Shown: piece by piece, positions 2,379-64,000 of the stretch
How the letters are laid out: every line of letters starts with the position of its first letter
Position numbering within the stretch: the first letter of the stretch is position 1
From: an uncultured delta proteobacterium
GTDB lineage: Bacteria > Desulfobacterota > Desulfobacteria > Desulfobacterales > UBA11574
Assembly: GCA_963731025.1 (NCBI GenBank)
Contig: CAVSVL010000016.1
Location: forward strand, 60,354 to 124,353
Reading direction: 5' to 3'
Length of the DNA stretch: 64,000 nucleotides
The notes under the pieces: generated by a model
The model's database searches: none
Told to the model about the DNA's origin: nothing
What the model saw: the letters and a program-made list of their open reading frames with translations, nothing else
Made by a program: the position numbers and the translations under genes

Positions 2379-2903
2379 TCAGTGTTTTTCCATTGATGAA
2401 AAATTATGAAGATCTGAATGATTTTTGTGACCGGACCACTTAGGCAGTTCATCGTCTATATCGATAACCCGCATGCCATAGAAGATATGGCACGTTGGTT
2501 TGAATTTGGTCGGGACTTTTGATGCACCTCCGAAATCAAAAAGTGATGGAAACGCCAGCCACATATTACGTCCTTCATCGGCAATGAGGGTGCCACACAC
2601 CGCACAGCTGACTTTGCAGGGAAGAATCCTCTCGTGTTTATTGAGTTCACTGCTGTAAAAATTCAGACAATCGATGCCTTTCGTAATTCTGACGTCATGT
2701 TTGTGGAATATGGCTGCCCATTGCATAGGGGCCCCATGCAGTTTTTGGCATGCCAAGCAATGACATATTTTTGCATCTACAGGATCCGAGCACACTTCGT
2801 ATTGCACTGCATTGCAGTAGCAACTTGCACGGTATTTGGCTGTAAAATTAGCATCTGTAATCGACGCATAATTTGATCCAAATTCTTTTTTCATGATAAT
2901 CAT
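2379..2903 (-). CDS. GFA (glutathione-dependent formaldehyde-activating / CENP-V) family protein
   Basis: Cys pattern CYCNAV...CHCLACQKLHGAP...CAVCG. Confidence 0.7.
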   Translation of the reverse strand: MIIMKKEFGSNYASITDANFTAKYRASCYCNAVQYEVCSDPVDAKICHCLACQKLHGAPMQWAAIFHKHDVRITKGIDCLNFYSSELNKHERILPCKVSCAVCGTLIADEGRNMWLAFPSLFDFGGASKVPTKFKPTCHIFYGMRVIDIDDELPKWSGHKNHSDLHNFSSMEKH

Positions 2904-2927
2904 ATCATAGATGTCGTTTATGTCCCT

Positions 2928-3146
2928 TTAGCTCGATCCGCCCGAAAAAGTGGGGCCGACGAAAGGATCAAGCATGCCACCCGCTCCGGTATACTCTTCT
3001 CGCTTTCTCATGGTGTTGGAAGACATGAGTTTCGCCACATTTTTACACTGGCATTCGGGGCATTGTGGGGGCGGATCACTGGAAAACAGCAGGAGTACTT
3101 CAAAGCAGTGAGAACACTCTTTACACTCATATTCGTAAATTGGCAT
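2928..3146 (-). CDS. FmdB-family zinc-ribbon protein
   Basis: MPIYEYECKECSHCFEV...CPECQ (CxxC...CxxC). GGAG RBS upstream. Confidence 0.75.
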   Translation of the reverse strand: MPIYEYECKECSHCFEVLLLFSSDPPPQCPECQCKNVAKLMSSNTMRKREEYTGAGGMLDPFVGPTFSGGSS

Positions 3147-29264: not shown

Positions 29265-29374
29265 AGCAGAAAGGGTTTGTGAAGTGCCTGATAGGTGGTG
29301 AGTGCAGGCCAGCGTTTACGGTTTTTATCAGTCCGCAGGCGGGAAAAGCTTTTGAGGTATTGATCAAGAGACAT
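29265..29374 (-). pseudogene. 5' fragment (~36 codons) of the HNH 'reader' nuclease gene with its upstream region
   Basis: Minus strand reads MSLDQYLKSFSRLRTDKNRKRWPALTTYQALHKPFLL, then diverges. About 90% DNA identity to 50478-50587. Confidence 0.7.
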
Positions 29375-29468
29375 TCCATCTCCCGGCTTTTAGAATGCGT
29401 GCTGTGTTTTATATTTCTTCTTGTCGGGCCGAAGCTTTCAGCAAAGGCTGATAATCACTATAAAGGAA

Positions 29469-37870: not shown

Positions 37871-37881
37871 CGGAGGAATGC

Positions 37882-37902
37882 GGGACGTACATTAGTTTAT
37901 AA
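37882..37902 (-). repeat. REP family 1, left flank of RAYT-like gene 1
   Basis: GGGACGTACATTAGTTTATAA, inverted relative to 38953-38973. Confidence 0.75.
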
Positions 37903-37907
37903 CTTCA

Positions 37908-49615: not shown

Positions 49616-50587
49616 TCATTTGCGGAATGTATTTCTCCGGTGCCAGTGAAGGTTATCCTGGGCCGGCCAGAAGCTTTCTTGTTCCGGCGTAAAGATGGGT
49701 CGATCGGTCAGTGTGAGAATGTGCCCGGGATAGTTTTGCTCCACCATTATTCGCTTTGAAACCAAAACTTCATATTTTTTGCTAACACTCATGAGCCCTT
49801 TGTCAAAAGACCAGTGGCAGAGCTTACAAAGCGCCATTCCATTGGTGGGCCGGTCGTCAAAGCTGTCTTTCCATGGTTTGACGTGAGCGGCATCGACAAT
49901 GGTGTGGCCCTCGGGCGTGAGCATGCGGATTCCGCACAGGGCACACCGGTGGCTGTAAAGGGTAATAATCGCTTTACGAAATCCCTGGTCCCGGACCTTT
50001 TTCCTCTGTTCAGACTCTTCTTTATCCGGCTCGAAAGAGGCTTTTGTCTCTGCCACTTTCAGCAGTTCTATGCTGTACTGAAAAGCCGCATAGTTTACCA
50101 TCCCTTGTCCTACCAATTTTGATTGAATTTCAGGAGCAAAATACGTTTTTATAAGTACTGCCCTCAACTGCTCCCTGGTTTCCGGGTTGCACAACAACTG
50201 AAACAGTTCATCATCCATTCGGGCACCGGCACAAACCTCACGCAGTTTGGTCATGGAGCTGAAATCGATATTGATTTGATTTTCATATCCCTGGATTTGG
50301 CACCAGATGCCAGAATCCATCGGTCTTCAGTCTGGGAAACGGATAGGCCATGCTCGTTTTTGAACCAAGCGGCATGACACTGTTCCAGTATGTATTGAAT
50401 GTATCAAAAGTTCAAAGGAAGGTTCGATGAAGTTTTGGGTAATCAGTCCCTGGGCGATCAGATCCATAATGGACAGCAGCAGAAAGGGTTTGTGAGGTGC
50501 TTGATAGGTGGTGAGTGCAGACCAGCGTTTACGGTTTTTATCAGTCCGCAGGCGGGAAAAGCTTTTGAGGTATTGTTCAAGAGACAT
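49616..50587 (-). pseudogene. HNH (HNH_2-type) endonuclease with N-terminal modification-reader-like domain, interrupted by one in-frame TGA (50329-50327)
   Basis: Track ORFs 50327-50587 and 49616-50320 share a frame: ...WPIRFPD-TGA-RPMDSGIWCQ... HNH motif HRCALCG...AAHVKPW...NGMALCKLCHWSFDKG. Confidence 0.65.
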
Positions 50588-50682
50588 TCAATCTCCCGGC
50601 TCTTAAAATGCTTGCTGTATTTTATATTTCTTTAATCAAGGATCAAGGTTTTACCACAAGTCACTTCGTTTTTACCTGCAGG

Positions 50683-50744
50683 AAACTTATAAAGTAATGT
50701 ACGTCCCCCATAGTTCCTAAAACTTAATGTTAAGACCGTCCCGC
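50683..50744 (+). repeat. two REP family-1 elements
   Basis: AAACTTATAAAGTAATGTACGTCCCCC ... AAAACTTAATGTTAAGACCGTCCCGC. Confidence 0.7.
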
Positions 50745-50771: not shown

Positions 50772-51668
50772 TCAATCCTTTGCTTTTGGCTCAACATCAC
50801 GGCATTTTCGTTCCAGTTGATGAATAATTCTTGAGATCATTTGGTCAGATAAATTTATGCCGCCTTTTGTTTTGGCGATGGATCGAAAGTTCTTGGGATT
50901 AATAACAGGAATGCCGCCGGAAGCAACTCTTTTTACAAACCATCCCGGCAGGGCAACAACCGGCCGAACCCTGATGGCCTCACCCACTGCTTTTTGCAAC
51001 CATTTTGACAGCCATTCCGCCTGCCTTTTGGCCTGTTCGATGGATTTAACGTCCATACCATTCGAAAATTGAAGACGCGTGCCGTCGTAATTAACCTTAG
51101 CATCTGCCTTTCGATCTTTTGAAGTTGGTTTTGATCGCGCTTTTGTTTCAACAGCAAATACACCCGAAGCGCCGACGACAATGTGATCGATATTGAACTT
51201 CCCTGCGGGAAAATCATGGTAGACACGGTATCCTTCCAGCATGAGCTGATTGAGCTCCTGGCCAACGGCAATTTCACCCTCGTAACCCAGCTGATAAGAC
51301 CGTCGCAGGTTCAATGATTTGACTAAATTAAAAAGAAAATAGGCGATAGAACCTATTCCAGCAATGATGTAAAAGGCAGTTGTAAATGTTGAAAGTTTTG
51401 AATTGCCGAAATGTAATAAAGATATATAAGTGGCATAAAAGAATATCGGCAATGTGATGAGTAAAAGAAGATTTTCAGTTAACCTATCATTGATTTCCAT
51501 AATTTTTCTGTTAAGGGATTCTCCCGGGCTTCTTAAAAAATTGTCGGTAAATGGTGATCGATATCTTTTTATCTGGCGATATTTCCGCAGCAGGTAGAGC
51601 ACTGAAGCAAAGATCGCATAGATTCCAAAAATCAGGATTACTGGGAAATATTTGAGTATCATGTTCAA
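50772..51668 (-). CDS. NERD-domain (nuclease-related) membrane protein
   Basis: 3 N-terminal TM helices. GYEGEIAVGQELNQL..GYRVYHDF...IDHIVVGASGVFAVETK. Confidence 0.75.
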   Translation of the reverse strand: MNMILKYFPVILIFGIYAIFASVLYLLRKYRQIKRYRSPFTDNFLRSPGESLNRKIMEINDRLTENLLLLITLPIFFYATYISLLHFGNSKLSTFTTAFYIIAGIGSIAYFLFNLVKSLNLRRSYQLGYEGEIAVGQELNQLMLEGYRVYHDFPAGKFNIDHIVVGASGVFAVETKARSKPTSKDRKADAKVNYDGTRLQFSNGMDVKSIEQAKRQAEWLSKWLQKAVGEAIRVRPVVALPGWFVKRVASGGIPVINPKNFRSIAKTKGGINLSDQMISRIIHQLERKCRDVEPKAKD

Positions 51669-51691
51669 GGCCTTCTCCTTCTTATATTTTT

Positions 51692-51787
51692 GTGAGGGAC
51701 TTGATAGCTAGTGAATGCAGACCAGCGTTTACGGTTTTTATCAGTTCGCAGGGTGGAAAAGCTTTTGAGGTATTGGGCAAGAGACAT
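51692..51787 (-). pseudogene. 5' fragment (~27 codons) of the HNH 'reader' nuclease gene, fused upstream of the NERD gene
   Basis: MSLAQYLKSFSTLRTDKNRKRWSAFTSYQVPHK, then a stop 2 nt before the NERD ATG. The upstream 5'-UTR homology extends to ~51860. Confidence 0.7.
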
Positions 51788-51913
51788 TCAATCTCCCAGA
51801 TCTTAAAATGCTTGCTGTATTTTATCTTTATTCTTGTCGAGCCGAAGCTTTCAGCAAAGGCTGATAATCAAGGATGAAGGTTTGAACCCAATCACTTCGT
51901 TTTTATCTCAAGA

Positions 51914-51939
51914 CAACTTATAAACTTATGTACGTCCCC
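51914..51939 (+). repeat. REP family 1
   Basis: CAACTTATAAACTTATGTACGTCCCC. Confidence 0.7.
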
Positions 51940-52156: not shown

Positions 52157-54806
52157 TCAGATCGGCCCTCATCCCCGTGAGCTGCTCGTAGCCAACTGCG
52201 TAAACATGAAGTTGCCGCTGGGTGATGTCCTCGGCCTGGGCTCGCTCATCGGATTTAAAGTCGACAATGAGTACTTCGTTGGTGTCAGCGCGCCGAATCA
52301 AATCGATGCGGCCGTTAACGACGACTCCTTCCTCCAGCTTTAACTCAATAACCTTTTCCACATGCTCAAGATTGTTCAGGTTTCGACTGTGCTCATTGAT
52401 ATAGCGCGTCAATGCTGCCCTCGCGGCCCGGCGCAGGTTTTGCTCGACAGGGGCGTTAGCAAAAGGTAGATTCAGATGCTCGTCAACGAGTCTGTCCACT
52501 TCATCCACTCCAGGAATTCTTCCCTGAATCGACTCAGCATGAATTTCGGCCAAGGCATTATGCATTGATTTACCATAGCCGAGGGCTCGATTTATGGGAG
52601 CATCGAATCCGTAGAGGAAGCGCAGCTTGAAGAGGTAAGGGCAGGTAAAGAAGTACTTAAGCTCGGAAAAGGTGAGAGCAAGTGTTATGTCTTCCTGCCT
52701 GGGCTGAGGCGGTATTATCGGTGGCAACTCTGTTCCGGGGTCTCGTGTCAAAACATGCTCATTATTGGTGATGTCCCGATGGAATTGAGAGACTCTGCGC
52801 TGCTGTCGATTGTCCTGAATTGGGGCCCATGAACAAAATAGATATTTTTCAGCACGTGTCACCGCAACGAAGAAGAGACGCCTTTCATCCTCTTCAGTGC
52901 CCTTGTATCGATCTGCATTGGCAACAGCGGCGGCAGGAATGACATGCCAGACAGAGCGGCCGCCATGTCTGCGTGAAGGGAATCGGTTGCGCCGGAGGCA
53001 TGGAACAAAAACAGCCGGCCACTGCATCCCTTTGGCCTTATGCACAGTTATGATTTCCACGGCATCGGGCTGGCCGAAACCGCTTTCCTCCCACCCTTCG
53101 GGATAGTATTCGGGGGCTTGATAGTGAAGATAGCTGGCAAAATCAGGATAAAGGTCTTCCGGTACGGAATGGAAATTAATCTGCTCAAAATCCGAGATAA
53201 CATTACTAAACTTGCCTAAGTTATAATAAACTATCTCACCAGTGCGAACACCATTAGGATCAGCGTCGATCGACTCCTCGCGGAGCCCAATGGCGGCGAG
53301 GAAATCCAAGTAAAGCCTTTGCAAATATAACTCTGCATCCATCTCGTATGTCAGGCGGGGTTTTCGTTCATTCAGGAATTCAAGCCCGGCATCAACCTGC
53401 TCGCCAGATAAGCCCAAGCCTACGCCAGCTAACGTAGCGCGAACGTCTGCCTCTGTCGGGGGGGTCTGCCTGCGAGGAGCAAAGTCGGCAAGATAAAAGA
53501 ATACCTGTCGGACTGCCTGAATCTCCGGGGTATCAAAAAGGCCGTCCATTCCGCTGATTATGTATGGTATTTCGGCATGGTCCAGAGCCTGGACGATTGG
53601 ACGTGCATCGTTACGAACGCTTCTTAGCAGGATTGCCATATCGGAGAATGTCAACCCACGGGGTTCTGAGTCAGGCTTGTCCCGGTATTCGGTTCCATGG
53701 AGCTGCTGTATCTTGACAACAATTGATGCCGCTTCTTCGTCGGGATCATCAAAACTGAGAGCGAGCACATCTCCCCGCGTGAATGGCTGAGCATCGGAGC
53801 TTTCCATGGCTTTAACCAGCCGTTGTGGTAAAAGCTCAATAAATTGACGTGATGCCTCCACAACGGCCCGACTGCTCCGGAAATTTATATTCAGGGGCAC
53901 GGTCGCAACGTTAGGATATCTATCTGCAAAAGAAATGATGTTTTGAACATCACTTCCGCGCCACTGGTAGATCGTCTGGTCGTCATCTCCAACTACACAT
54001 ATGTTGCCGCAAAGCTCGAATAATTCTCTGATCAGTTGTTCCTGTATTGGGTTTATATCTTGGTACTCATCAATGATTAAAAAACGGAGCTGTTCACTTA
54101 TTTTCTCACGGAGGCCAGAATGGGTTCTGAGTTCATTGAGGGCTGCAGTGAGGATGGTTGTGTAGTCCAGATACCGGCTCTCGTCTAAAAGGCCCCGGTA
54201 CATCTCCATGCAATTACGAACCAGGTCTGGAATCAGGTCATTGTCAACGTCTGCCTCCATACAAATGTTCAGCAGTTGCTGATATAATTTTGAGTCCTTC
54301 CACCGACCTAAGGTGCCACCGCTGAGCAGTGGTGTTTGAGACAAACCGGACCGCCTGCTATTTCTATCAATAAAAAGCCGTTGATGTACCTCGGACAAAA
54401 CCTGATACTTGAGAAAACGATATAGCGGCGGTTCTTGGAGCAGATTCAAACAATAGCCATGGATTGTACCAATGTACATATCCCCAAGACCCTGGTCCGT
54501 CCCTATCTCTTCCACGCAGAGCCGGTGAATGCGATCTTTTAGTTCTGCTGCCGCTTTATCGGTGAAGGTAAATGCTACTATGTTGGCAGGTGTAACGCCT
54601 TCATTCCCTTGAGTGTTGAGAAGGTGAACGATCCGTGCGGAAATCACTTGAGTTTTTCCGGACCCTGCACAAGCGATGATTTGAAGATTCTGGTCAACTG
54701 TTTCGATGGCTCTTCTTTGCTCGGGAGTATAGTCCACGTAAACCTCCAATGACGAGTATCGTGATGGGTTTGCGTCTTGAATAATGAATAAAGTGCTACT
54801 ATTCAT
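52143..54806 (-). CDS. UvrD/Rep-family helicase fused to a Cas4/AddB-like PD-(D/E)xK nuclease domain
   Basis: Walker A CAGSGKTQ, IIDEYQD, VGDDDQTIYQWRG, VHKAKGMQW. C-terminal FFTCPYLF...GRIDLI...IVDFKS. Its real C-terminus appears frameshifted (see 51968-52156). Confidence 0.8.
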   Translation of the reverse strand: MNSSTLFIIQDANPSRYSSLEVYVDYTPEQRRAIETVDQNLQIIACAGSGKTQVISARIVHLLNTQGNEGVTPANIVAFTFTDKAAAELKDRIHRLCVEEIGTDQGLGDMYIGTIHGYCLNLLQEPPLYRFLKYQVLSEVHQRLFIDRNSRRSGLSQTPLLSGGTLGRWKDSKLYQQLLNICMEADVDNDLIPDLVRNCMEMYRGLLDESRYLDYTTILTAALNELRTHSGLREKISEQLRFLIIDEYQDINPIQEQLIRELFELCGNICVVGDDDQTIYQWRGSDVQNIISFADRYPNVATVPLNINFRSSRAVVEASRQFIELLPQRLVKAMESSDAQPFTRGDVLALSFDDPDEEAASIVVKIQQLHGTEYRDKPDSEPRGLTFSDMAILLRSVRNDARPIVQALDHAEIPYIISGMDGLFDTPEIQAVRQVFFYLADFAPRRQTPPTEADVRATLAGVGLGLSGEQVDAGLEFLNERKPRLTYEMDAELYLQRLYLDFLAAIGLREESIDADPNGVRTGEIVYYNLGKFSNVISDFEQINFHSVPEDLYPDFASYLHYQAPEYYPEGWEESGFGQPDAVEIITVHKAKGMQWPAVFVPCLRRNRFPSRRHGGRSVWHVIPAAAVANADRYKGTEEDERRLFFVAVTRAEKYLFCSWAPIQDNRQQRRVSQFHRDITNNEHVLTRDPGTELPPIIPPQPRQEDITLALTFSELKYFFTCPYLFKLRFLYGFDAPINRALGYGKSMHNALAEIHAESIQGRIPGVDEVDRLVDEHLNLPFANAPVEQNLRRAARAALTRYINEHSRNLNNLEHVEKVIELKLEEGVVVNGRIDLIRRADTNEVLIVDFKSDERAQAEDITQRQLHVYAVGYEQLTGMRADLIEIS

Positions 54807-54866
54807 TATTCAAGACAAGACACCAGATCGCTACTCCTTTAATCAGCAATGAAAGCTGGATACGGT

Positions 54867-55825: not shown

Positions 55826-56227
55826 TTACAAAAACATGTCAAGTTTTTCGCTGAGTTTCTCGATATCTTTTACCTCACACCCCCAAACAATAATAGGCTC
55901 CCAGCCCTTTTCCTTTATTTTATGAATATTCATAGAATCGCGTTCGATGGTTTTGTCTAATTTGGTATTCCAAAAATCGACATTGGTTGTGGGTCTTTTG
56001 GACCGAAGACAACCTTTGTGGCCGTGCCAAAAACAACCGTGGACAAAAATGACCTTTTTATGCTTTGGAAGAACAATATCAGGGTTGCCCGGCAAATCTT
56101 TTCGATGAAGACGGAAACGATATCCCATACTATGGAGTAGCGAACGAACGACTCGCTCGGGCTTTGTATCCTTGCCCTTAACTTTTGCCATTATCCGGCT
56201 TCTTTTTTCTTTGCTGAATACATCCAT
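55826..56227 (-). CDS. vsr: very-short-patch repair endonuclease
   Basis: SRIMAKVKGKDTKPE...LPGNPDIVLPKHKKVIFVHGCFWHGH. Confidence 0.9.
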   Translation of the reverse strand: MDVFSKEKRSRIMAKVKGKDTKPERVVRSLLHSMGYRFRLHRKDLPGNPDIVLPKHKKVIFVHGCFWHGHKGCLRSKRPTTNVDFWNTKLDKTIERDSMNIHKIKEKGWEPIIVWGCEVKDIEKLSEKLDMFL

Positions 56228-56234
56228 GGCCGGG

Positions 56235-57440
56235 TCACGGTTTTAGTTTGAAAAGCAAACGAACAACATCCGCCACTCTTGCAGCCAGCAAAGGCGGGAC
56301 TGCATTTCCGATTTGCTTGGCGATTTCTATTTTCGACCCTTTAAAAATAAAATCATCCGGAAAACTCTGAATTCTTGCCGCCTCTCTATGTGTAATGGGT
56401 CGATGTTGTTCCGGATGAAGGTATCTTCCTTTTTCAGGTTTGAAAAATTCGGTTCTGATAGTCAAAGACGGCTTTTCCCACCACAAACGCCCGAACAAAT
56501 CCGTGCTGCCGGTTTTTTTCTTCAACCAACAGTTCGGTGTTAAGTCCGGCCTAGCTTTCTGCAAATCGAACCGATTCATTCCCTCTTCAGGGATGGCCTT
56601 ATATCGGTCAATGCTCATTTGCGTGGGGCTTCTACCGAAATGCAAATCCAGCGGCGGCGGAACATCTCTTATTTCCGTCCCTTCAGGGGGTGGTAAATCT
56701 CCTATAACTTTTCTAACCGTTCTCCATTTTCGAGGGATAGAAAGATATCCATCATTTCCCATTCCGGGCAGTGCGATCTGTATATTATTTGCCTCAGGGT
56801 TGTAGTGAGACTTTCTTGGCGGGAATACTATTGCAGGATGAAAAAACCTACATCCGATAATAAATGCACGTATCCGTTTCTGAGCGACGCCATAATTGGC
56901 GGCTATCAGTTTATCTTGCCAAACTTTAAAACCCATCTTTTCAGCGTACCCAACGATCTCCCCATGCTCATAAGTATCCAGGAGTTGAGGTACGTTTTCC
57001 ATAACGAATACATCGGCGCCGGACTTTTCAACAATTTCCATAAAAGGTCGCCAAAGCTGGTTTCTTGGATCGCCTTCCCGCTGTTTATTAAGTAGGCTGA
57101 ATCCTTGACACGGCGGACCGCCAATCACAACATCGGCTTTTGGTAAATCGGTTTTTGAGTCGTTTAGAATATCGACGATATCGCCGGCAACACAATGATT
57201 ACCAAAATTTGCGTTATATGTCTCAACACAATACTCATTGAAATCATTTGCCCATATCGGTTCAAATGGTTGTCCAAAGCTTTCGGAAAATCCAAGCGTC
57301 ATTCCGCCTGCGCCTGCAAACAAATCAATCAAACGATACTTTTGTTGTTCTTCAGGCAATTTGCCGCGGAACCGAGCCTCATAAATAGCCTGATCTTCTT
57401 TTAAGATATCCAACCTCTTTATATTATCTAATTTATTCAT
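56235..57440 (-). CDS. dcm: DNA (cytosine-5)-methyltransferase
   Basis: Motif I DLFAGAGG, motif IV GGPPCQGFS, ENV, QKRIRAFI, GNAVPP. Confidence 0.9.
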   Translation of the reverse strand: MNKLDNIKRLDILKEDQAIYEARFRGKLPEEQQKYRLIDLFAGAGGMTLGFSESFGQPFEPIWANDFNEYCVETYNANFGNHCVAGDIVDILNDSKTDLPKADVVIGGPPCQGFSLLNKQREGDPRNQLWRPFMEIVEKSGADVFVMENVPQLLDTYEHGEIVGYAEKMGFKVWQDKLIAANYGVAQKRIRAFIIGCRFFHPAIVFPPRKSHYNPEANNIQIALPGMGNDGYLSIPRKWRTVRKVIGDLPPPEGTEIRDVPPPLDLHFGRSPTQMSIDRYKAIPEEGMNRFDLQKARPDLTPNCWLKKKTGSTDLFGRLWWEKPSLTIRTEFFKPEKGRYLHPEQHRPITHREAARIQSFPDDFIFKGSKIEIAKQIGNAVPPLLAARVADVVRLLFKLKP

Positions 57441-57780
57441 TACACTTCTATGTATATGAGGATTTAGGGGCAGAACTATAATTTATTATAAATTTGAATA
57501 GCATTAATCTATTAGGACTTCAATTAGGACTTCAATCATAGTTTATTTTAGCACACGTGACTTGCGGTATGCCCCTTAAATTATAAGTTTATTGCACAAT
57601 ATCTGCATCATTAAGACTTTGGCTGACAAGTCAGGGGCCCCCGTTATTTGTTGTTTGGGGTCGGGCCACGACAACCATCTATAATCACGGCGATAATACC
57701 TAAAAATAGGGCCTGATTCCGCTCTTAAACGACGATTTTGGGGGACTAAAAGCAGCTCTTTAAACTGCAATGATATTACA

Positions 57781-58053
57781 TCATCCAAGTACTGCTATTA
57801 ATTCGCCAATAACCCTCAACTCGCCAATAAAATCCCCATCAAACGTCAACTCTTCATAGCCCTTGATATGTGAATCTGGCCTTAACACAATCCTGCTATG
57901 TCGCCATTCATCCCCCTCAGTTATCTTTTCGCTGTGGTATAGCTTTACCGTAAATGATGCTCCTGTATCCTGATCTTGAATGTCCCTGTGCTGGACTATG
58001 ACTACCTTGTTGTTTCTACTCCCTCCCGGATTTTCTTTAAACAAGCACCAGGC
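57781..58053 (-). pseudogene. C-terminal fragment of an S24/LexA-like beta-barrel domain, cut by the IS21 end
   Basis: AWCLFKENPGGSRNNKVVIVQHRD...FTVKLYHSEK...IVLRPDS. The N-terminal 25 aa of the track ORF are translated IS21 terminal repeats. Confidence 0.5.
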
Positions 58054-58318
58054 TGCGTATTCCGATTGATCGCGAACACCGATTCCGATCGATTGCGAAC
58101 AGCGTTCCGATTCATCCCGAACAGTCATTCCGATTGATCGCGAACAGCATTCCGGAGCATCACGAACAGAAAATATAATACATTGAAAGCGACGCTGGTA
58201 ACCTATAAACCGTCGGCAAAGTTAATATCTCATGTGCGAACGAGGAGGAGCTATGCCGACAAAGAGGTTGACCATGCGCAAAATCAGAGAAATTTTACGG
58301 TTAAAGTTCGATTGCAGT
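58054..58318 (+). mobile_element. IS21-family remnant: left end with iterated repeats plus first 22 codons of istA
   Basis: GAGGAGG RBS then MPTKRLTMRKIREILRLKFDCS (58253-58318), a typical IstA N-terminus, followed abruptly by REP copies. Confidence 0.55.
58059..58168 (+). repeat. five direct ~20-bp repeats at 22-23-bp spacing (ATTCCGATTGATCGCGAACA)
   Basis: Units at 58059, 58082, 58104, 58127 and 58149. Interpreted as the multiple terminal transposase-binding repeats of an IS21 end. Confidence 0.7.
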
Positions 58319-58371
58319 GTTCTACGGGACGTACATAAGTTTATAAGTTTATTCATGACTGTTCTACGGAC

Positions 58372-58592
58372 TGTTCTACGGGACGTACATAAGTTTATAA
58401 GTTTATTCATAATATCTTCACGCTTAAAACTGTGGCTGACAAGTCAGGAATCTGAGATCAGATGTCAGAGATCAGAAGTCGGCTCCAAAAACCCAACCCT
58501 TAATTTCTTTTGGCGTAAGCTTTTTGTTTCTCCTTTACCGTTTTTAACTAATTCTGAAAATCTATCTGTATGTTCAAGATTATGTATTGATG
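58372..58592. repeat. segmental repeat A, copy 1 (221 bp)
   Basis: One mismatch to 59128-59348. Begins with a REP family-1 element. Confidence 0.85.
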
Positions 58593-59127
58593 CGCGTTCT
58601 AAGGGACGCTCATTAGTTTATAAGTTTATTCACAATATCTGCATGTTTAAAATAGCAGGCTTCAGGGATCGGGGACCAGAGATCGGCCGTAAAAACCCAA
58701 CCCTTAATTTCTTTTGTTTGTCTTCCTCAGTCAAAAGCTGCTTTATGGTTTCCATTATGTAATGTTTTGGGTTTTAGATAGTATTAATACCAAAGTTTAG
58801 AGAGCAGAGGAATTGATCCCAAATTCAACTTTAAAATCAGTCGCCTTAACAACGGGTTTGATGGATTTGTCTTGCTTAATCAAATCAACAATCCCGTATC
58901 GTGACATCGTCTTTAGCGTTCGAGAAAGATTGCTGCTCTTTCTGCCCGTAGCATTTTCCAACTCCTTTAAAGAATTTGGATTCTTTTCGCTGATAACCTT
59001 TAACAATTTTTGATTTTCGCTACTGAGTACTTGTGCCATCGAGTTTATGGATTCAAACCAAATTTTCGGCTCATCCTTTTTAGGCTTATATTCTCCTCGT
59101 GCAATAGCTATAGTTCTTTTTTTATAG
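58593..59127. repeat. segmental repeat B, copy 1 (535 bp)
   Basis: Matches 60918-61452 by eye. Begins with a REP variant (GTTCTAAGGGACGCTCATTAGTTTATAAG). Confidence 0.85.
58797..59127 (-). pseudogene. 5'-truncated duplicate of the TumA-like HTH gene
   Basis: Identical to the 3' two-thirds of 61122-61496. The reading frame is cut at the B1/A2 junction (59127/59128). Confidence 0.75.
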
Positions 59128-59348
59128 TGTTCTACGGGACGTACATAAGTTTATAAGTTTATTCATAATATCTTCACGCTTAAAACTGTGGCTGACAAGT
59201 CAGGAATCTGAGATCAGATGTCAGAGATCAGAAGTCGGCTCCAAAAACCCAACCCTTAATTTCTTTTGGCGTAAGCTTTTTGTTTCTCCTTTACCGTTTT
59301 TAACTAATTCTGAGAATCTATCTGTATGTTCAAGATTATGTATTGATG
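59128..59348. repeat. segmental repeat A, copy 2
   Basis: See 58372-58592. Contains the last 4 codons and stop of the NUDIX gene. Confidence 0.85.
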
Positions 59349-59758
59349 GAGATTTCTCCATTCTTCAGCTTTTCGACAAAAATCAAGTCTGCAGGAGCAA
59401 AATCAAACTCATTAAGCTGTTCCAACGATATCCACTTAAAATCATCATGATCGTTTAGATGAATTTCCCCATCTTCCCAATACGCACGATATGCCAAAAG
59501 CTCAATGGATATGTGATCGTAGTGGTAAATACTCGATCCAAGATATTCACCAACAGACACATCGATATCGAATTCTTCTTTCATTTCCCGTTTTAAACAT
59601 TGTTCCGGTGTTTCATTGATTTCGATTTTGCCGCCGGGAAATTCCCATTTGTGCGCCAGTCGATCATTGGGCCCTCTTTTGGCGATGATGATCTTGTTAT
59701 CTTTTGCCATTATCGCGGCCGTAACTTTAACAATATCTGAAAGTGCTTTACTATTCAT
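59336..59758 (-). CDS. NUDIX hydrolase (MutT-like)
   Basis: Nudix box GGKIEINETPEQCLKREMKEEFDI. Confidence 0.85.
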   Translation of the reverse strand: MNSKALSDIVKVTAAIMAKDNKIIIAKRGPNDRLAHKWEFPGGKIEINETPEQCLKREMKEEFDIDVSVGEYLGSSIYHYDHISIELLAYRAYWEDGEIHLNDHDDFKWISLEQLNEFDFAPADLIFVEKLKNGEISINT

Positions 59759-60807
59759 TATAAATTTAACCGCAAATGGAGCCGTTTCATCACATCTTTG
59801 GCTTCCTCAAGCCGTTCTACAAGCTCCCTGCTCTTTTCTCCTAAAAACCTCTCAAAATCAGCCGTGTTGAGCGGTGTAATGTAACCCTTAAGCTGAAGAT
59901 GCAACGCATCACGAAAGGCCAAATCCCGGCTGGCCATTTTGTTGCGCGCCTTTTCGATCAATGGTTTCCAGTGTGGCTGATCCTCAAAGGCACTAAAAAG
60001 CTCATCAACCTCCCATGAGGTGAGTTTATCGCCTTTTTTTTCATAGGCGCCTTCAAGCACTTTTGCAAAACCATATTCATAGGCGGAAACCAAATCTAAA
60101 ATTTCCGTGTAAAAAGTGTCGCGTACGCTGTCTTTTTCATGCAGGCGCAAAATATTGCGGTATTCTTTAGCCTTTTCACGGAAAATGCTCACATATATCT
60201 TGTCGGTGTAAAGGGGGTATTTGAAATTGCCCATATCCACATAGCTTTTTAAGGCATCTGTAAACTCTTTACGATAATTTTCCTCCTGAAACCACGTCAG
60301 AAGAAAATCTTCATCTCGCTGGTTGATATACTTTGTCCCGCCGCCGGTGCGCTGGTTGATGGTGTCTATGACAATGTCCAAAATCATCTGGCGCAGCAAA
60401 CGCGCCCGTTCGCTCTCGGTAATCAACATCCCAAGGTTAAGAAATGCCCGGAAATCAAAAATGCCCAATTGGGACACTTTTATGTTCACGAAATCTGTTT
60501 CGTTAACATCCTGTTCATAAACAGACATCTTAAATTTTTTCAGCCGGTTACCACGTATCACCTCGTACCCGTTTTGGCGCAGCTCATCGCTGAATTTCTC
60601 GATGTAATTGTCGATCGTGCGGGATGTGACCTCGAAAAATGCCGATATCTGCTCCTTGAGCACCACGGTTTTTCCTTCAAACGGAATGCCTTTGATACAT
60701 GTCGCCTTTTCTATTTCCTGTAACGCAAAGGGGTTATTCAGTATATTCTGACGATCAACCTGTGAAACGGTCAGGTCTTTCTTTTCTTTCTTGCCTTTCT
60801 TGCTCAT
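59758..60807 (-). CDS. hypothetical DNA-binding-type protein (phage/plasmid-like)
   Basis: 349 aa. Lys-rich N-terminus, HTH-like ISAFFEVTSRTIDNYIEKF. Overlaps the NUDIX start by 1 nt. Confidence 0.5.
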   Translation of the reverse strand: MSKKGKKEKKDLTVSQVDRQNILNNPFALQEIEKATCIKGIPFEGKTVVLKEQISAFFEVTSRTIDNYIEKFSDELRQNGYEVIRGNRLKKFKMSVYEQDVNETDFVNIKVSQLGIFDFRAFLNLGMLITESERARLLRQMILDIVIDTINQRTGGGTKYINQRDEDFLLTWFQEENYRKEFTDALKSYVDMGNFKYPLYTDKIYVSIFREKAKEYRNILRLHEKDSVRDTFYTEILDLVSAYEYGFAKVLEGAYEKKGDKLTSWEVDELFSAFEDQPHWKPLIEKARNKMASRDLAFRDALHLQLKGYITPLNTADFERFLGEKSRELVERLEEAKDVMKRLHLRLNL

Positions 60808-60917
60808 TTCATTTTCCTCACAGGCTTTTCACATCATCAATGCCGGCCTGGCGCAGAATCTGGACGGCGTTTGTCTTGACCACGTCGTCTTGGAATCCTG
60901 AATCTTTGAATACCACC

Positions 60918-61452
60918 CGCGTTCTAAGGGACGCTCATTAGTTTATAAGTTTATTCACAATATCTGCATGTTTAAAATAGCAGGCTTCAGGGATCGGGGA
61001 CCAGAGATCGGCCGTAAAAACCCAACCCTTAATTTCTTTTGTTTGTCTTCCTCAGTCAAAAGCTGCTTTATGGTTTCCATTATGTAATGTTTTGGGTTTT
61101 AGATAGTATTAATACCAAAGTTTAGAGAGCAGAGGAATTGATCCCAAATTCAACTTTAAAATCAGTCGCCTTAACAACGGGTTTGATGGATTTGTCTTGC
61201 TTAATCAAATCAACAATCCCGTATCGTGACATCGTCTTTAGCGTTCGAGAAAGATTGCTGCTCTTTCTGCCCGTAGCATTTTCCAACTCCTTTAAAGAAT
61301 TTGGATTCTTTTCGCTGATAACCTTTAACAATTTTTGATTTTCGCTACTGAGTACTTGTGCCATCGAGTTTATGGATTCAAACCAAATTTTCGGCTCATC
61401 CTTTTTAGGCTTATATTCTCCTCGTGCAATAGCTATAGTTCTTTTTTTATAG
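60918..61452. repeat. segmental repeat B, copy 2
   Basis: See 58593-59127. Confidence 0.85.
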
Positions 61453-61496
61453 TCCTTTTGAGAAAGAATCCCGATCTTTAATACCTTTTTTCTCAT
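61122..61496 (-). CDS. TumA-like / HVO_A0114-family HTH protein (putative antitoxin)
   Basis: MRKKVLKIGILSQKDYKKRTIAIARGEYKP...LLKVISEKNPNSLKELENATGRKSSNLSRTLKTM (winged helix). 8 nt downstream of the TumE-like gene. Confidence 0.55.
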   Translation of the reverse strand: MRKKVLKIGILSQKDYKKRTIAIARGEYKPKKDEPKIWFESINSMAQVLSSENQKLLKVISEKNPNSLKELENATGRKSSNLSRTLKTMSRYGIVDLIKQDKSIKPVVKATDFKVEFGINSSAL

Positions 61497-61504
61497 AACA
61501 TCAC

Positions 61505-61867
61505 CTATGATTTTAGTATTTCCTCTGCTGCTATCCAAAAATCTTCTAAAAGATGGCTTGCGGATTCAAATTCGTATGGAGTTACTTTATTCATTTTATG
61601 CTTATGGTCCCAAGTAATCTTACGAGCGCCATATTTCTTCTTTTTTGGCTTAAATGCATGGGCATTGTCAAAGCCCAAAACACGAATATTGTTTTGGTTA
61701 TGCAAAGTTAAAGAGTATTTAACACCATGTGGAGTTTGTAAGGTTGTTTCAACTTTTGTTGCTTCAAACTTTGTCCAATAACCATTTTCCATTGGAAAAA
61801 CCTCACCATCCAAATTCAACAATGTTTCCAACGATGAATCTTTTTTCGAGTATTTTTCCTTAGACAT
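61505..61867 (-). CDS. TumE-like (DUF6516) putative toxin
   Basis: PHGVKYSLTLHNQNNIRVLGFDNAH...WDHKH...YEFESASHLLEDFW pattern. Confidence 0.55.
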   Translation of the reverse strand: MSKEKYSKKDSSLETLLNLDGEVFPMENGYWTKFEATKVETTLQTPHGVKYSLTLHNQNNIRVLGFDNAHAFKPKKKKYGARKITWDHKHKMNKVTPYEFESASHLLEDFWIAAEEILKS

Positions 61868-61947
61868 CGGTAAATTTACTTATCATCTGATGATAATTAT
61901 GTCAAGCTTTAATAAGGACACATTACTTTGTCCTTCGTATACTACCC

Positions 61948-61980
61948 CAACTTGAGGTCACAATTTGTGACCTCAAGTTG
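61948..61980. promoter_or_regulatory. perfect 16+1+16 palindrome upstream of the TumE/TumA-like operon (candidate operator)
   Basis: CAACTTGAGGTCACAA-T-TTGTGACCTCAAGTTG, about 80 bp upstream of the 61867 start. Confidence 0.5.
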
Positions 61981-62050
61981 TTAAGTTCGTCAATTGTGCA
62001 TTCAAACAGGAAATCGTTTTTATAGAGTATAAATGGGGTCACAGGAATCT

Positions 62051-62078
62051 GGGGGACGTTCTTAACATATTAAGTTTT
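62051..62078 (-). repeat. REP family 1 (inverted orientation)
   Basis: GGGGGACGTTCTTAACATATTAAGTTTT. Confidence 0.65.
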
Positions 62079-62308
62079 CCCAACTAATTAAAATAAAAAA
62101 TCCTGTTCAGCCCGATAGTCCATCTTGCCTCATAGCTCATTCAATGGTATCGGGGTGAAATCTTTTGTTTTTATTTTTTGGAGTCTAAAAACCAATGTGG
62201 GTATCCTTCACCTCCGATGCAAGTAATTAATTGTCCTTGCATATAAATCAAAACCGGATTATTATTCAATTAAATCATCATGTAAGCCTTAAATTTTAAG
62301 GAGGAACT

Positions 62309-62506
62309 ATGAAATATAAAATTGTTCTAAATAAAACAGACGAAGGTTACAGTGTTTCCTGCCCAGGTCTACCAGGATGCTGGTCACAGGGTAAAACTGA
62401 AGTTGAAGCAATCGATAATATCAAGGATGCTATACAAGAGTACTTGGCTGCTGTATACGCCTCCGTTAAAGATTCCAACGTTCGAGAAGTTGAAATAGCC
62501 ATTTAA
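62309..62506 (+). CDS. hicB: HicB-family antitoxin
   Basis: MKYKIVLNKTDEGYSVSCPGLPGCWSQGKTEVEAIDNIKDAI; AAGGAGG RBS. Confidence 0.8.
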   Translation: MKYKIVLNKTDEGYSVSCPGLPGCWSQGKTEVEAIDNIKDAIQEYLAAVYASVKDSNVREVEIAI

Positions 62507-62508
62507 TC

Positions 62509-62724
62509 ATGCCGAAAATTCCCGGAGTCAATCATCTTCGAGCCGTTAGGGCATTGGAAAAAGCAGGTTTCCGTATTCTTCGAGATGGAAAAAAGCATAT
62601 TGTCATGTCTGACGGCACCAGATTCCTTACAATCCCTCGCAATAATCCCGTTAACGCCTTTACCATGGGCGGTATTGTCCGGGACGCCGGACTCACTGTC
62701 GATGAATTTAAAAAACTATTATAG
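62509..62724 (+). CDS. hicA: HicA-family mRNA-interferase toxin
   Basis: LRAVRALEKAGFRILRDGKKHIVMSDG..FLTIPRNNPVNAFTMGGIVRDAGL. Confidence 0.8.
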   Translation: MPKIPGVNHLRAVRALEKAGFRILRDGKKHIVMSDGTRFLTIPRNNPVNAFTMGGIVRDAGLTVDEFKKLL

Positions 62725-62770
62725 AATATCCGCTTCGCTCCAACAAGCCGGGGTCAGAATGGGCAAGTTG

Positions 62771-63892
62771 TCATTTTGATGCTAAAAGTCTATCGACTTT
62801 GGACTTTATCTGCATCATCACGAGACTCCCCAGGCTTAATTTACCCCTTGCACGTCCCAATTCGATGCTCGCTTCAATTAAATCCTTGGGTACATCCGGC
62901 TGATCATATCCCGGTTTGCGAGCCAGTGACATTGAATCTGTGGGACAGGTGGACACACATAGTCCACAGCCAATGCATCGATCCATATCAATAGACGCTT
63001 TTTCATCCACCAGTTGAACCGCCTCCATCTGGCAACGATCCTCACAAACGCCACAGCCTTCGCAAGTTTCGATGTTGATCACAGCAAAAAACGGCGTAGA
63101 TGCTAAACTCGCCGGTTTGGGATAGCTTTTTAAACTCCGAAGCACGCCGCAGCAATCTCCACAGCAGCAACAGATATTTATAATCTCCCTGGCATTGCTG
63201 GGTTGAAGTACCAAACCCGCTTCTTCTGCAATTTTAAGAATGTCTAAGGCTTCTTGTTGACCGATCTCCCGCCCAAGGCCATTGCGTTGATAATACTCTG
63301 CCCCTTTATCAAATACGAGACAGGTTTCTTCGGGCTTGCCACATCCTTTTCCTAATAAACTGAGCTCACGACGGCAGATACAAGGAGCTACCACAGATTT
63401 GCCAACATGCCTTACCATTTCCTCTGCATTTTCATAGGTCATCACCTTTAGTTCACCGGATAAGCTTTTATTAACAGGGATCGTCCGCAATTGCGGCTTT
63501 TTCCATGCTTGGTCAAAAAGAAACGGAATATATTCTCCCATATCCTTTGCAAGACCTTCATCTAAATCATTCACATGAAACTCCCAAATGCCGATGGCAT
63601 ATTGAGCGGCCATGTACATCGGTCGATCTGCTTGAGAGTCAATTCTGTAAATAAGCCCTTTTTGAGCCATGGTTTCCAATCGCTGAGAAGCTTCCCGGGA
63701 GGATATTTTGGCGCGCCTTGCCACAACCCTGGTTTCTTCGGGGATCAAGGTCAAATAAGGTGCAAATTCAGCCTCTTTGGGTGTAAACAGTCTCTTTAGA
63801 ATACGGATTTCCACGCCGGTATCAGTCGAAGGAAATCCACCGGGCAAGTTATCCAGATGTTTTGCAAGCTTTTGATAAATTTTTTCTGTCAT
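62771..63892 (-). CDS. 4Fe-4S dicluster domain protein with N-terminal winged-helix-like region
   Basis: CICRRE...CGKPEETC, CCCCGDCCG, CEGCGVCEDRC, CIGCGLCVSTCP. Confidence 0.7.
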   Translation of the reverse strand: MTEKIYQKLAKHLDNLPGGFPSTDTGVEIRILKRLFTPKEAEFAPYLTLIPEETRVVARRAKISSREASQRLETMAQKGLIYRIDSQADRPMYMAAQYAIGIWEFHVNDLDEGLAKDMGEYIPFLFDQAWKKPQLRTIPVNKSLSGELKVMTYENAEEMVRHVGKSVVAPCICRRELSLLGKGCGKPEETCLVFDKGAEYYQRNGLGREIGQQEALDILKIAEEAGLVLQPSNAREIINICCCCGDCCGVLRSLKSYPKPASLASTPFFAVINIETCEGCGVCEDRCQMEAVQLVDEKASIDMDRCIGCGLCVSTCPTDSMSLARKPGYDQPDVPKDLIEASIELGRARGKLSLGSLVMMQIKSKVDRLLASK

Positions 63893-64000
63893 GAGGACCT
63901 ACTCTTGTTAGTCCAGGGACCAGGGGGCAGGTGCCAGGACTAGCGGAACGCCCCTTAAATTATAAGTTTCTATTTTTCCTCGGCACTCTCCTCGGTCTTT

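Follow-up and report, generated by a model that had tools for sequence, protein, structure and literature searches.

Breakpoints at the outer edge of a putative TIRtron repeat in a recently rearranged toxin-antitoxin and candidate defence island

A real and recent rearrangement has taken place within an island that holds toxin-antitoxin genes and candidate defence genes. In the window (the whole 64-kb stretch of DNA that was analysed), two segments are duplicated in the order A1-B1-A2-[NUDIX + 349-aa gene]-B2, and the breakpoints coincide with the outer edge of a repeat that is dispersed genome-wide. Judged by its sequence, this repeat is the terminal inverted repeat of TIRtrons, which carry Y1 HUH genes of the TIRYT class, and the joints at its edge look like a natural footprint of TIRYT activity. 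The best explanation, to which we assign a probability of about 0.5, is that HUH cleavage at the repeat edge would yield a 5'-phosphotyrosine that is resolved by a foreign 3'-OH. A first-pass annotation of this DNA had proposed cleavage by a RAYT enzyme beside REP hairpins; as a whole, that interpretation is partly supported.

The genes of the island all lie on the minus strand, and behind each gene module comes an element, about 200 bp long, with one repeat unit at its end. The repeat is about 31 nt long and reads as seven semi-variable bases, then GGGACGYWCATWAGTTTATAASTT; we refer to the strand with this reading as the P strand, which is the plus strand of the window in this array. Repeat search and self-BLAST alignment of the window bore out both the duplication and the boundaries drawn in the first-pass annotation. 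Element A has two plus-strand copies (58372-58592 and 59128-59348; 221 bp, 99.55% identity) with a single mismatch at 58554/59310. Element B likewise has two (58593-59128 and 60918-61453; 536 bp, 100% identity); its final base is a 1-nt ambiguity, so that the length is 535 or 536 bp and the copies may equally be given as 58593-59127 (B1) and 60918-61452 (B2). A1 is a solo element A, made up of a repeat unit (58373-58403) and about 190 nt, and ends 13 nt into the 3' end of the NUDIX gene. B1 carries a repeat unit (58596-58626) and the 3' 243 nt of a TumA-like gene. It thus ends within that gene, as had been claimed, which leaves a truncated duplicate ORF of 80 aa (58797-59039, minus strand). 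A2 lies downstream of the NUDIX gene and includes a repeat unit (59129-59159) and the last four codons and stop of NUDIX. Between A2 and B2, and only there, stands a 1569-bp gene module, X (59349-60917, minus strand), which holds most of the NUDIX gene (59336-59758, minus; PADLOC PDC-S07), the 349-aa gene (59758-60807, minus; PDC-M59A) and an open 32-aa C-terminal ORF fragment (60808-60917, minus) that abuts the B2 edge. B2 (plus strand, like B1; repeat unit 60921-60951) includes the 3' part of the intact TumA-like gene. This gene belongs to a toxin-antitoxin pair on the minus strand (61122-61867), formed by the TumE toxin (61505-61867) and the TumA-like HVO_A0114 wHTH protein (61122-61538). 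The restriction of the module to the second copy and the lack of a target-site duplication at the segments, both noted in the first-pass annotation, were found again.

All five copies of GTTCTAMGGGACG in the window occur here (58319, 58373, 58596, 59129 and 60921), and every one of them is the start of a duplicated segment, which agrees with the earlier placement of the breakpoints at a repeat edge. The exact position is another matter: cleavage had been expected at GTTCTA|GGGACG, whereas all joints lie 5' of GTTCTAC, at -7/-8 relative to GGGACG for A and at -10 for B. The novel joints all share one polarity on one strand, namely an arbitrary 3' end and then the repeat outer edge. They are also abrupt: NUDIX codons run into the B edge and the TumA interior runs into the A edge, the parents being without homology, and microhomology is limited to 0-1 nt in the two long ones. 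For homologous unequal crossing-over, the related elements A and B would offer a substrate, since they have 57 bp in common at 86% identity plus an identical 26-mer, in direct orientation, and a hybrid B/variant element in contig L002 shows that recombination between repeats takes place. However, crossing-over predicts joints inside the shared sequence and A/B chimeras, not abrupt joints between non-homologous parents that share just 0-1 nt. It had already been judged insufficient in the first-pass annotation; the junction sequences contradict it, and we consider it barely plausible.

The sequence to the left of A1 carries further joints at the same edge. A partial A-type repeat end of 39-43 nt (58316-58358, plus strand; nhmmer 58320-58359, E 2.6e-8) starts at the repeat outer edge and abuts a truncated IS21 istA. 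A 12-nt tandem duplication (GACTGTTCTACG x2; 58359-58371, plus) stands at the A1 outer edge; a similar stutter is also seen in metagenome copies of the repeat. The IS21-family remnant (58059-58318, plus) retains its left end, with five direct repeats of 22-23 bp (58059-58168), and istA codons 1-22 (58254-58318), and istA is cut off at codon 22, exactly at the repeat edge. The remnant interrupts the C-terminal remnant of a 310-aa gene (57781-58128, minus) that is intact in contig L001. Variant repeat units of the same family lie downstream of the 310-aa gene remnant (57559-57602, plus), upstream of the TumE/TumA module (62047-62082, plus) and upstream of a Fer4 gene (63938-63972, plus), and the repeat array runs on beyond the end of the window.

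Related contigs allowed us to weigh the possibility that haplotypes of a repeat-rich locus had been mis-threaded in assembly, so that A1-B1-A2-X-B2 would exist in no cell. At least four haplotypes of the locus coexist in one metagenome, which speaks for such an artefact. Nevertheless, an independent metagenome contig (L006, ENA ERZ25039500 contig_4169) has the identical order despite a 650-bp Fic indel and 1.2% divergence nearby, and the A1/A2 SNP is the same in both contigs. Furthermore, the novel joints, including that between the partial repeat and IS21, have no shared overlap, so reads must contain them. Because they offer no homology along which an assembler could thread, we regard an artefact as very improbable. 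A third contig has the simple, unduplicated state. The first-pass annotation had described A|B and A-insert-B as 'empty' and 'filled' junctions, and this description is tenable as far as A1|B1 has no module between the A inner boundary and the B outer edge. A is similar to a related element located behind a Fic gene in L006, and the A1 inner end lies 2 nt inside the point where this similarity begins; the inner 170 nt of A and B had no homologues outside the locus. In the sister haplotypes, at least five different sequences come after the same A edge, and the constant side is always the repeat edge. The partners are the 310-aa gene (L001), a TumA-internal position, an A-internal position, codon 22 of IS21 istA, and the interior of IS3 orfB (L002). 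Related genomes could have dissociated the breakpoints from the repeat; they yielded more joints at the same edge.

We then consider the repeat as a family. There are 20 copies in the 64-kb window (nhmmer, E<1e-3), and at least 120 metagenome loci match its 24-nt pattern, while a scan of viral contigs returned three chance matches. An IS110-family RNA-guided recombinase (45575-46861) sits inside one repeat unit of the window (AACGT|IS|GTCCCC). In a sequence logo of 130 copies, conservation stops at -7. Among 124 metagenome copies, 18 (~15%) are preceded by a partial copy with its start at this very edge, versus 2 of 124 in the control. The joints of these partial copies lie at -6 to -11, their variable 3' ends span 10-40 nt, and their polarity is that seen in the window. 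A search of the metagenome loci for long repeat-anchored duplications gave short ones only.

The first-pass annotation took the repeat for a REP, which it is not in the strict sense. It does share with REPs a high-copy intergenic distribution and inverted copies around a Y1 transposase gene, but the 20-40-nt imperfect palindrome with a stem-loop is missing. We found no palindrome or hairpin in the repeat, and ssDNA and RNA folds of the A, B and TIRtron copies gave minimum free energies of 0 to -1.8 kcal/mol with z near 0; the B copy has a weak structure of -5 kcal/mol that draws on flanking bases. Several other identities were rejected. A promoter, terminator or archaeal TATA reading was dropped because the orientation of the repeat relative to genes is inconsistent. 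Against a dif/Xer-like site, to which the repeat bears only a loose resemblance, argues the density of one copy per 3 kb. For an IS91-type GAAC/CAAG target, the tetranucleotide is not conserved over the repeat variants and there is no Rep gene. As for a structured RNA, no Rfam model reached its gathering threshold anywhere in the window, the hits in 56-64 kb were only sub-threshold noise, and tRNA and tmRNA genes were absent. Group II introns or retro-copied mRNA 3' ends were set aside in the absence of intron features, the reverse transcriptase of L001 being a defence-type RT-protease.

The window contains two Y1 HUH genes, each flanked by inverted repeats. TIRtron #1 (37875-38980, minus strand; gene 37908-38915) lies about 20 kb from the rearrangement and is bounded by inverted units of the repeat (37875-37905 and 38950-38980) that are identical to the A end over 24 nt. 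TIRtron #2 (40869-41982, minus; gene 40879-41871) has its own 26-bp inverted repeats (40869-40894 and 41957-41982). The termini, GGGGACGT and GGGGTCGC, agree at 6 of 8 positions with the published TIRtron repeat motif GGGGWSAS (PMC3733652). Both proteins have the Y1_Tnp domain of TIRYTs (PF01797, E 2e-11 and 1.3e-14), with HFH/HYH motifs, RYIHLNP and the catalytic Tyr, and both have the additional HTH domain (PF08299, Bac_DnaA_C, at residues 240-293 and 255-311; NCBIfam also matches a DnaA C-terminus). On the NCBIfam RAYT model NF047646 they score 74.7 and 70.0 bits, below the cut-off of 80. The enzyme is therefore not a classical RAYT but a TIRYT, Y1 plus DnaA_C; the first-pass annotation had spoken of RAYT cleavage. 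The idea of HUH/Y1 cleavage beside a hairpin survives in its first half only: Y1 HUH genes are in the window and one is flanked by the repeat, but there is no hairpin. The whole TIRtron #1 unit also occurs in unrelated contexts in two metagenome contigs (L122 and L076), where homology ends at -7 on both sides, which is the position of the A breakpoints. The same TIRtron in L062 has a different 7-nt outer segment, which counts against a cut by TIRYT at this edge; the seven outer bases may be target-derived and not part of the TIRtron.

TIRYTs and TIRtrons (Di Nocera et al. 2013, PMC3733652) correspond to TnpA_REP subclass 2.1.2 (Quentin et al. 2018, PMC6006769) and form the largest RAYT-like HUH subclass, present in 14.9% of strains (Quentin 2018, PMC6006769). 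The published work is purely descriptive and reports no activity, cleavage site or rearrangement (PMC3733652, PMC6006769). Our units resemble them in the Y1 HUH nuclease, which has the HUH and Tyr motifs and carries Bac_DnaA_C as its C-terminal HTH domain, in the position of the gene within non-palindromic terminal inverted repeats, and in solo, paired and clustered repeat copies dispersed genome-wide; the start of the inverted repeats here, GGGG[AT]CG, compares with the published GGGGWSAS at the 6 of 8 positions given above. Beyond the published TIRtrons, the termini here have an assignable position (-7), duplications, deletions and gene truncations have a polar hot spot at the edge, and the repeat ends gene modules in toxin-antitoxin/defence arrays. 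The likeness to the RAYT/REP/REPIN system (E. coli TnpA_REP; Messing 2012, PMC3479197) consists in a domesticated-looking Y1 HUH gene and inverted high-copy intergenic repeats. REPs, in contrast, are GTAG-tagged hairpins and the repeat here is hairpin-free; the proteins here reach 70-75 bits against a cut-off of 80 and are twice the RAYT length owing to the added HTH domain. RAYT chemistry, in which a 5'-phosphotyrosine is resolved by any 3'-OH (PMC3479197), predicts the joint polarity that we see.

From these data we infer TIRYT as the cutter and a path of nicking, extension and rejoining. TIRYT would nick the P strand at the repeat outer edge, 7-10 nt 5' of GGGACG, and would remain on the new 5' end through a phosphotyrosine link, which a 3'-OH different from the original would then resolve. 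This 3'-OH could belong to a nascent strand, either one extended from the nick or one that grows at another place on that strand. If A were nicked, a 2325-nt extension through A-X-B and rejoining would produce the tandem duplication with the joint B1|A2. In a second event, a 3' end at the A inner boundary would be joined to the nicked B edge, which would create A1|B1 and leave the left copy devoid of module X. To the same reaction we would also ascribe the partial copy of 39-43 nt, the stutter of 12 nt and the truncation of IS21. Several facts count against this explanation. Two independent events are required for the observed order; hairpins are what characterised Y1 enzymes recognise, and the repeat forms none; and in the array the P strand runs with lagging-strand polarity, which means that it is not the template of the lagging strand on which IS608-type enzymes act.

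Nor do the joints fall on one single phosphodiester (A -7/-8, B -10, family -6 to -11). This scatter fits replication-fork stalling with template switching, in which the repeat blocks the polymerase, perhaps through the bound DnaA-like HTH domain of TIRYT or another protein, and the nascent 3' end re-primes elsewhere without HUH cleavage. Slippage typically yields short perfect tandem duplications such as those seen at the edge (10-40 nt), and the ones with flanking 4-nt repeats, such as GTAC...GTAC in L062, could be plain slippage. In the same island, the 650-bp deletion at Fic is of the ordinary kind, with 2 nt of microhomology. On the other hand, microhomology is only 0-1 nt at the IS21 and IS3 joints as well as at the two long ones, which is poor for template switching. 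Stalling predicts the repeat edge as the 3' side, whereas what stays constant is the 5' side, where the P-strand copy starts, and the 3' end is arbitrary. In addition, the mobile TIRtron ends at the same position, pointing to a cut. We therefore consider stalling a possible but doubtful source of the joints.

The cleavage explanation might extend to a cassette system, although we think this unlikely. In such a system, the TIRYT repeat elements would be recombination sites, and the Y1 HUH enzyme would drive excision, duplication and re-insertion of modules (TA pairs, NUDIX/PDC-S07, PDC-M59) by way of single-strand intermediates. One cassette would reach from the inner boundary of one ~200-bp element to the next outer repeat edge; A1|B1 would represent such a cassette when 'empty', and A2-X-B2 the same cassette when 'filled'. 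If true, this would be a single-strand integron analogue that builds and reshuffles defence/TA islands. Chromosomal integrons are similar in that short modules (TA pairs, NUDIX, defence candidates) alternate with related recombination-prone elements, one behind each module and all in one orientation, and in 'empty' and 'filled' states side by side. They differ in that the island has no intI and no attC structure with R/L boxes (R''/R' and L''/L'), and its joints do not lie at G|TT in a core site. The array likeness would also suit another site-specific recombinase, either the IS110-family enzyme or an integron- or Xer-like tyrosine recombinase that pairs the repeat with secondary sites, and the IS110 element, which targets the repeat family, is inserted within a repeat unit. 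However, the IS110 crossover (CGT^CCC) is about 10 nt off the joints, and the required IS donor junction is absent from them. As to a tyrosine recombinase, an integrase gene, attC-type R''/R' pairing and a hairpin are all missing: we found no inverted repeats in 56000-64000, where the fold is not significant, and no integrase or other tyrosine recombinase among the window ORFs scanned, the array end lying beyond the window. We hold such a recombinase to be quite improbable.

One-ended or rolling-circle transposition of IS91, ISCR and Helitron elements, and illegitimate recombination at HUH nick sites of rolling-circle replicons, give a constant 5' nick end and a variable 3' end; fragments of neighbouring genes are captured, without target duplication or microhomology. 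The constant 5' edge, variable 3' end, gene fragments and lack of a target duplication recur here, as does the near absence of microhomology. The differences are that we see no Rep/helicase or Y2 enzyme and no origin or terminator hairpins, that copies stack at one site undispersed, and that the neighbours of the constant end are NUDIX, PDC-M59A and TumA and not a Rep-type HUH gene. IS200/IS605 elements have subterminal hairpins, a TnpA of about 150 aa and often tnpB; the proteins here are 330-335 aa long with an HTH domain, with no hairpins and no adjacent tnpB. Shyamala et al. are said to have described, in 1990, REP-mediated tandem duplications in Salmonella with REP-to-REP joints. Both cases have join-points at dispersed extragenic repeats, but here the edge joins unrelated non-repeat DNA.

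The locus and its sister haplotypes thus form a natural record of a putative TIRYT reaction: a terminus 7 nt outside GGGACG, strict strand polarity, near-zero microhomology and a stutter that recurs in unrelated metagenomes. With this record, the cleavage site and strand of TIRYT become directly testable predictions. It also suggests that the repeats actively remodel TA/defence islands through gene duplication, deletion and truncation, and are not passive intergenic repeats. Arrays with one repeat after each operon were also found in three unrelated metagenome contigs (L059, L065 and L120).

Judged from sequence, the 57800-62000 region holds what we regard as a genuine, recent rearrangement anchored at repeat edges within a defence/TA island. 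Direct reading of this region, a repeat search and self-BLAST of the window reproduced the coordinates of the duplicated segments proposed in the first-pass annotation. The two copies of segment A (58372-58592 and 59128-59348; 221 bp) differ by one mismatch (58554 a, 59310 g), and those of segment B (58593-59127 and 60918-61452) are identical, BLAST adding one ambiguous base. On the plus strand the order is A1-B1-A2-X-B2, X being the gene module at 59349-60917. The 64-kb window contains five copies of GTTCTAMGGGACG, all within the rearranged region, and a segment opens at each. Every gene here lies on the minus strand. From right to left, the TumE toxin gene (61867-61505) is followed by the gene of a TumA-like HVO_A0114 wHTH protein (61538-61122), then by B2 (element B), an open C-terminal ORF fragment of 32 aa, the 349-aa protein (PADLOC candidate PDC-M59A, E 2e-102), the NUDIX protein (PDC-S07) and element A (A2). 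Then come B1, which combines element B with 243 nt from the 3' end of the TumA-like gene, and A1, which combines element A with the final 13 nt of NUDIX. Beyond A1 lie a tandem duplication of 12 nt, a partial copy (39-43 nt) of the A end and an IS21 istA cut at codon 22; leftmost, beyond the IS21 remnant, only the C-terminal part remains of a gene whose intact form occurs elsewhere. The IS21 left end carries five direct repeats of 22-23 bp (58059-58168; ATTCCGATTGATCGCGAACA), which presumably serve IstA as multiple binding sites.

Three contigs carrying sister haplotypes of the locus, all from one ENA metagenome assembly, were identified by exact-protein look-ups. L001 (contig_4315) has the unduplicated A-insert-B state in the simple order TumE-TumA-B-M59A-NUDIX-A, continuing directly into a 310-aa gene, without IS21 and without A1/B1. 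L006 (contig_4169) has the order A2-B1-A1-stutter-partial-IS21 exactly as in the window and with the identical A1/A2 SNP; it differs in a 650-bp segment with the Fic partner PDC-M59B and, further on, by 1.2 % divergence. An assembly artefact is unlikely, since the novel joints have no common sequence that an assembler could mis-thread and L006 repeats both order and SNP; we therefore regard the duplicated arrangement as real. In L002 (contig_3049) the A end is joined to the interior of IS3 orfB. Among these near-identical genomes, at least five unrelated sequences follow the A end ...CGTCCCGTAGAAC (gene orientation). The L001 310-aa gene has a reading frame open as far as the A edge, and its similarity to a 657-aa PADLOC model is confined to the C-terminal part of that model, so that this gene, too, looks 5'-truncated.

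PDC-M59 is a two-gene candidate defence system, with PDC-M59B as its Fic partner. Comparison of L006 2361-3010 with window position 59779/59780 shows that PDC-M59B was lost from the window, L001 and L002 by a 650-bp deletion with 2 nt of microhomology, which rewrote the final residues of the 349-aa protein. L002 also carries a hybrid element (2735-3005), in which the body is that of element B and the terminal unit that of the 57559-type variant (…AATTTAAGGGGCATCCCGCAAGT), showing that different repeat-bearing elements do recombine. The TumA-like copy adjoining it contains an inserted IS3 right end.

The simplest history would involve two events: tandem duplication of 59128-61452, producing the B1-A2 joint, and a deletion of X in the left copy, producing the A1-B1 joint. 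We denote as the P strand the one reading seven semi-variable bases and then the GGGACG-type repeat (the plus strand in every repeat unit of the rearranged array), and as -n the nucleotides 5' of GGGACG. On this strand the B1-A2, A1-B1, IS21, IS3 and partial-copy joints each consist of an arbitrary 3' end followed by the 5' edge of a repeat, with 0-1 nt of microhomology. These junction sequences contradict homologous unequal crossing-over, which we exclude, and uphold the first-pass claim that this process alone cannot give such breakpoints.

A sequence logo of 130 distinct copies showed that, outside GGGACG, position -3 is almost always T, -1 is G or C, and -6 and -7 are purines, conservation being absent past -7. 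The A breakpoints fall at -7/-8 (immediately before GTTCTAC GGGACG, or one base further out) and the B breakpoints at -10. An upstream partial copy starting at the same outer edge was present in 18 of 124 metagenome copies among the matches listed, against 2 of 124 for the control, 9-mer recurrence. Their stutter joints range from -6 to -11, and the partial copies measure 10-40 nt, many ending directly after GGGACG. Longer members of this series are found in the window: the 12-nt stutter, the 39-43-nt partial copy, A1 (221 bp) and the A-X-B' unit (2325 bp). On the P strand the 5' start of each is fixed at the repeat edge, and the 3' end, which varies, is succeeded by the next repeat edge. Plain slippage could lie behind some of the short duplications.

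A Pfam scan of the window ORFs identified two Y1_Tnp + Bac_DnaA_C proteins (37908-38915 and 40879-41871), both with the HUH motif and tyrosine. The first gene is flanked by units of the repeat in inverted orientation (37875-37905 and 38950-38980), whose sequence agrees with the A end for 24 nt (GGGACGTACATAAGTTTATAAGTT). It recurs with these units in unrelated contexts on L122 (95 % over 1106 nt) and L076 (99.6 %), where homology to the window stops at -7 on both sides. The second (element 40869-41982) has its own 26-bp inverted repeats of the TTAAGATGCGACCCCCATG type, of which a third copy (47207-47245; 39 bp identical) adjoins the right end of an IS110 element; two enzyme/repeat pairs thus coexist at most 4 kb apart. 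This architecture is the one that Di Nocera et al. (PMC3733652) called TIRYT/TIRtron, whose published terminal inverted repeats contain GGGGWSAS (the termini here agree with 6 of the 8 consensus positions), and that Quentin et al. (PMC6006769), noting its DnaA_C-like domain, assigned to TnpA_REP subclass 2.1.2.

The asymmetry of the joints is that expected from HUH chemistry, and we therefore propose a nick-and-rejoin process. A nick would be made at the repeat edge, the enzyme keeping the site-specific 5' end as a phosphotyrosine; strand-displacement extension would follow, or another nascent 3' end would arrive, and be rejoined to the nicked edge. An argument made for the monomeric E. coli RAYT is that the phosphotyrosine could be resolved by any 3'-OH (PMC3479197). 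We infer that TIRYT is the nuclease cutting the repeat edge. The HUH cleavage proposed in the first-pass annotation is supported in substance, not in detail, because both proteins score just under the NCBIfam RAYT cut-off and are not classical RAYTs, and the repeat is not a hairpin REP: RNA folds of 135-150 nt gave no secondary structure (z about 0), and 60-nt ssDNA folds gave none either (MFE 0 to -1.8 kcal/mol; A-type and TIRtron copies). The absent hairpin counts against nick-and-rejoin, as do the scatter in joint position and the TIRtron copy on contig L062, whose seven outer bases are unlike those of that TIRtron elsewhere. The main alternative is fork stalling followed by template switching. 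The rearrangement yields a specific prediction, open to test, of cleavage site and polarity for TIRYT, a very common, uncharacterised HUH subclass.

An unlikely candidate maker of the joints is the IS110-family element (45439-47176), which targets the same repeat family; its target, however, is CGT^CCC, about 10 nt away from the rearrangement joints. The element sits inside a repeat-family unit (AACTTAATATGTTAAGAACGT, then IS...GGAT, then GTCCCCTAC), with a further unit beyond it at 47476-47507. Its tnp (45575-46861, plus strand) belongs to an RNA-guided transposase family (NCBIfam NF033542, 180 bits), and its long 3' non-coding region (about 315 nt) might hold a bridge or seek RNA. Integron-type recombination would need an integrase and attC, both absent from the window ORFs and folds examined; the repeat itself is ruled out as attC by its lack of secondary structure.

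We keep open a cassette-like reading, in which A1-B1 and A2-X-B2 would be "empty" and "filled" states. The inner end of A1 lies 2 nt inside the start of similarity between element A and the L006 Fic-associated element, so that the gene module lost at the A1-B1 joint spans, almost exactly, the interval from one element boundary to another. This reading also fits toxin-antitoxin operon arrays (PIN/VapC and RelE/ParE types) on L059, L065 and L120, from organisms whose DNA shows no relationship to the window, in which one same-orientation repeat unit follows each operon at a spacing of 1-1.6 kb; gene orientation relative to the repeat is, however, only biased, not fixed.

A small nhmmer profile finds the family 20 times in the window (E<1e-3), in both orientations and always intergenic, and a metagenome scan with GGGACGYWCATWAGTTTATAASTT found at least 120 loci; many copies among the matches listed precede ATGCCAC, the region of the TIRYT start codon, by 35-45 nt. 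Rfam and ARAGORN searches gave no matches. Outside 57-64 kb, the P strand is the minus strand in 11 of 12 repeat units. Plus-strand GC skew is negative in nearly all 4-kb bins (mean -0.06) and most window genes lie on the minus strand, so the plus strand has lagging-strand polarity. Direct repeats of about 220-250 bp and 86-91 % identity (50489-50710 and 51689-51939), each ended by a repeat-family unit, lie on either side of a NERD nuclease gene (50772-51668, minus strand), and a related 150-nt element is present at 29265-29419. On the unrelated contigs L066 and L104, NUDIX homologues with differing truncation points abut B-like repeat elements, so the association of NUDIX with the repeat recurs. 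A 33-bp near-perfect palindrome (AACTTGAGGTCACAAATTGTGACCTCAAGTT; 61948-61980) lies upstream of TumE, a 46-bp palindrome (54774-54816) overlaps the start of the UvrD-like gene, and L066 has a similar GGTCACAAATTGTGACC palindrome.
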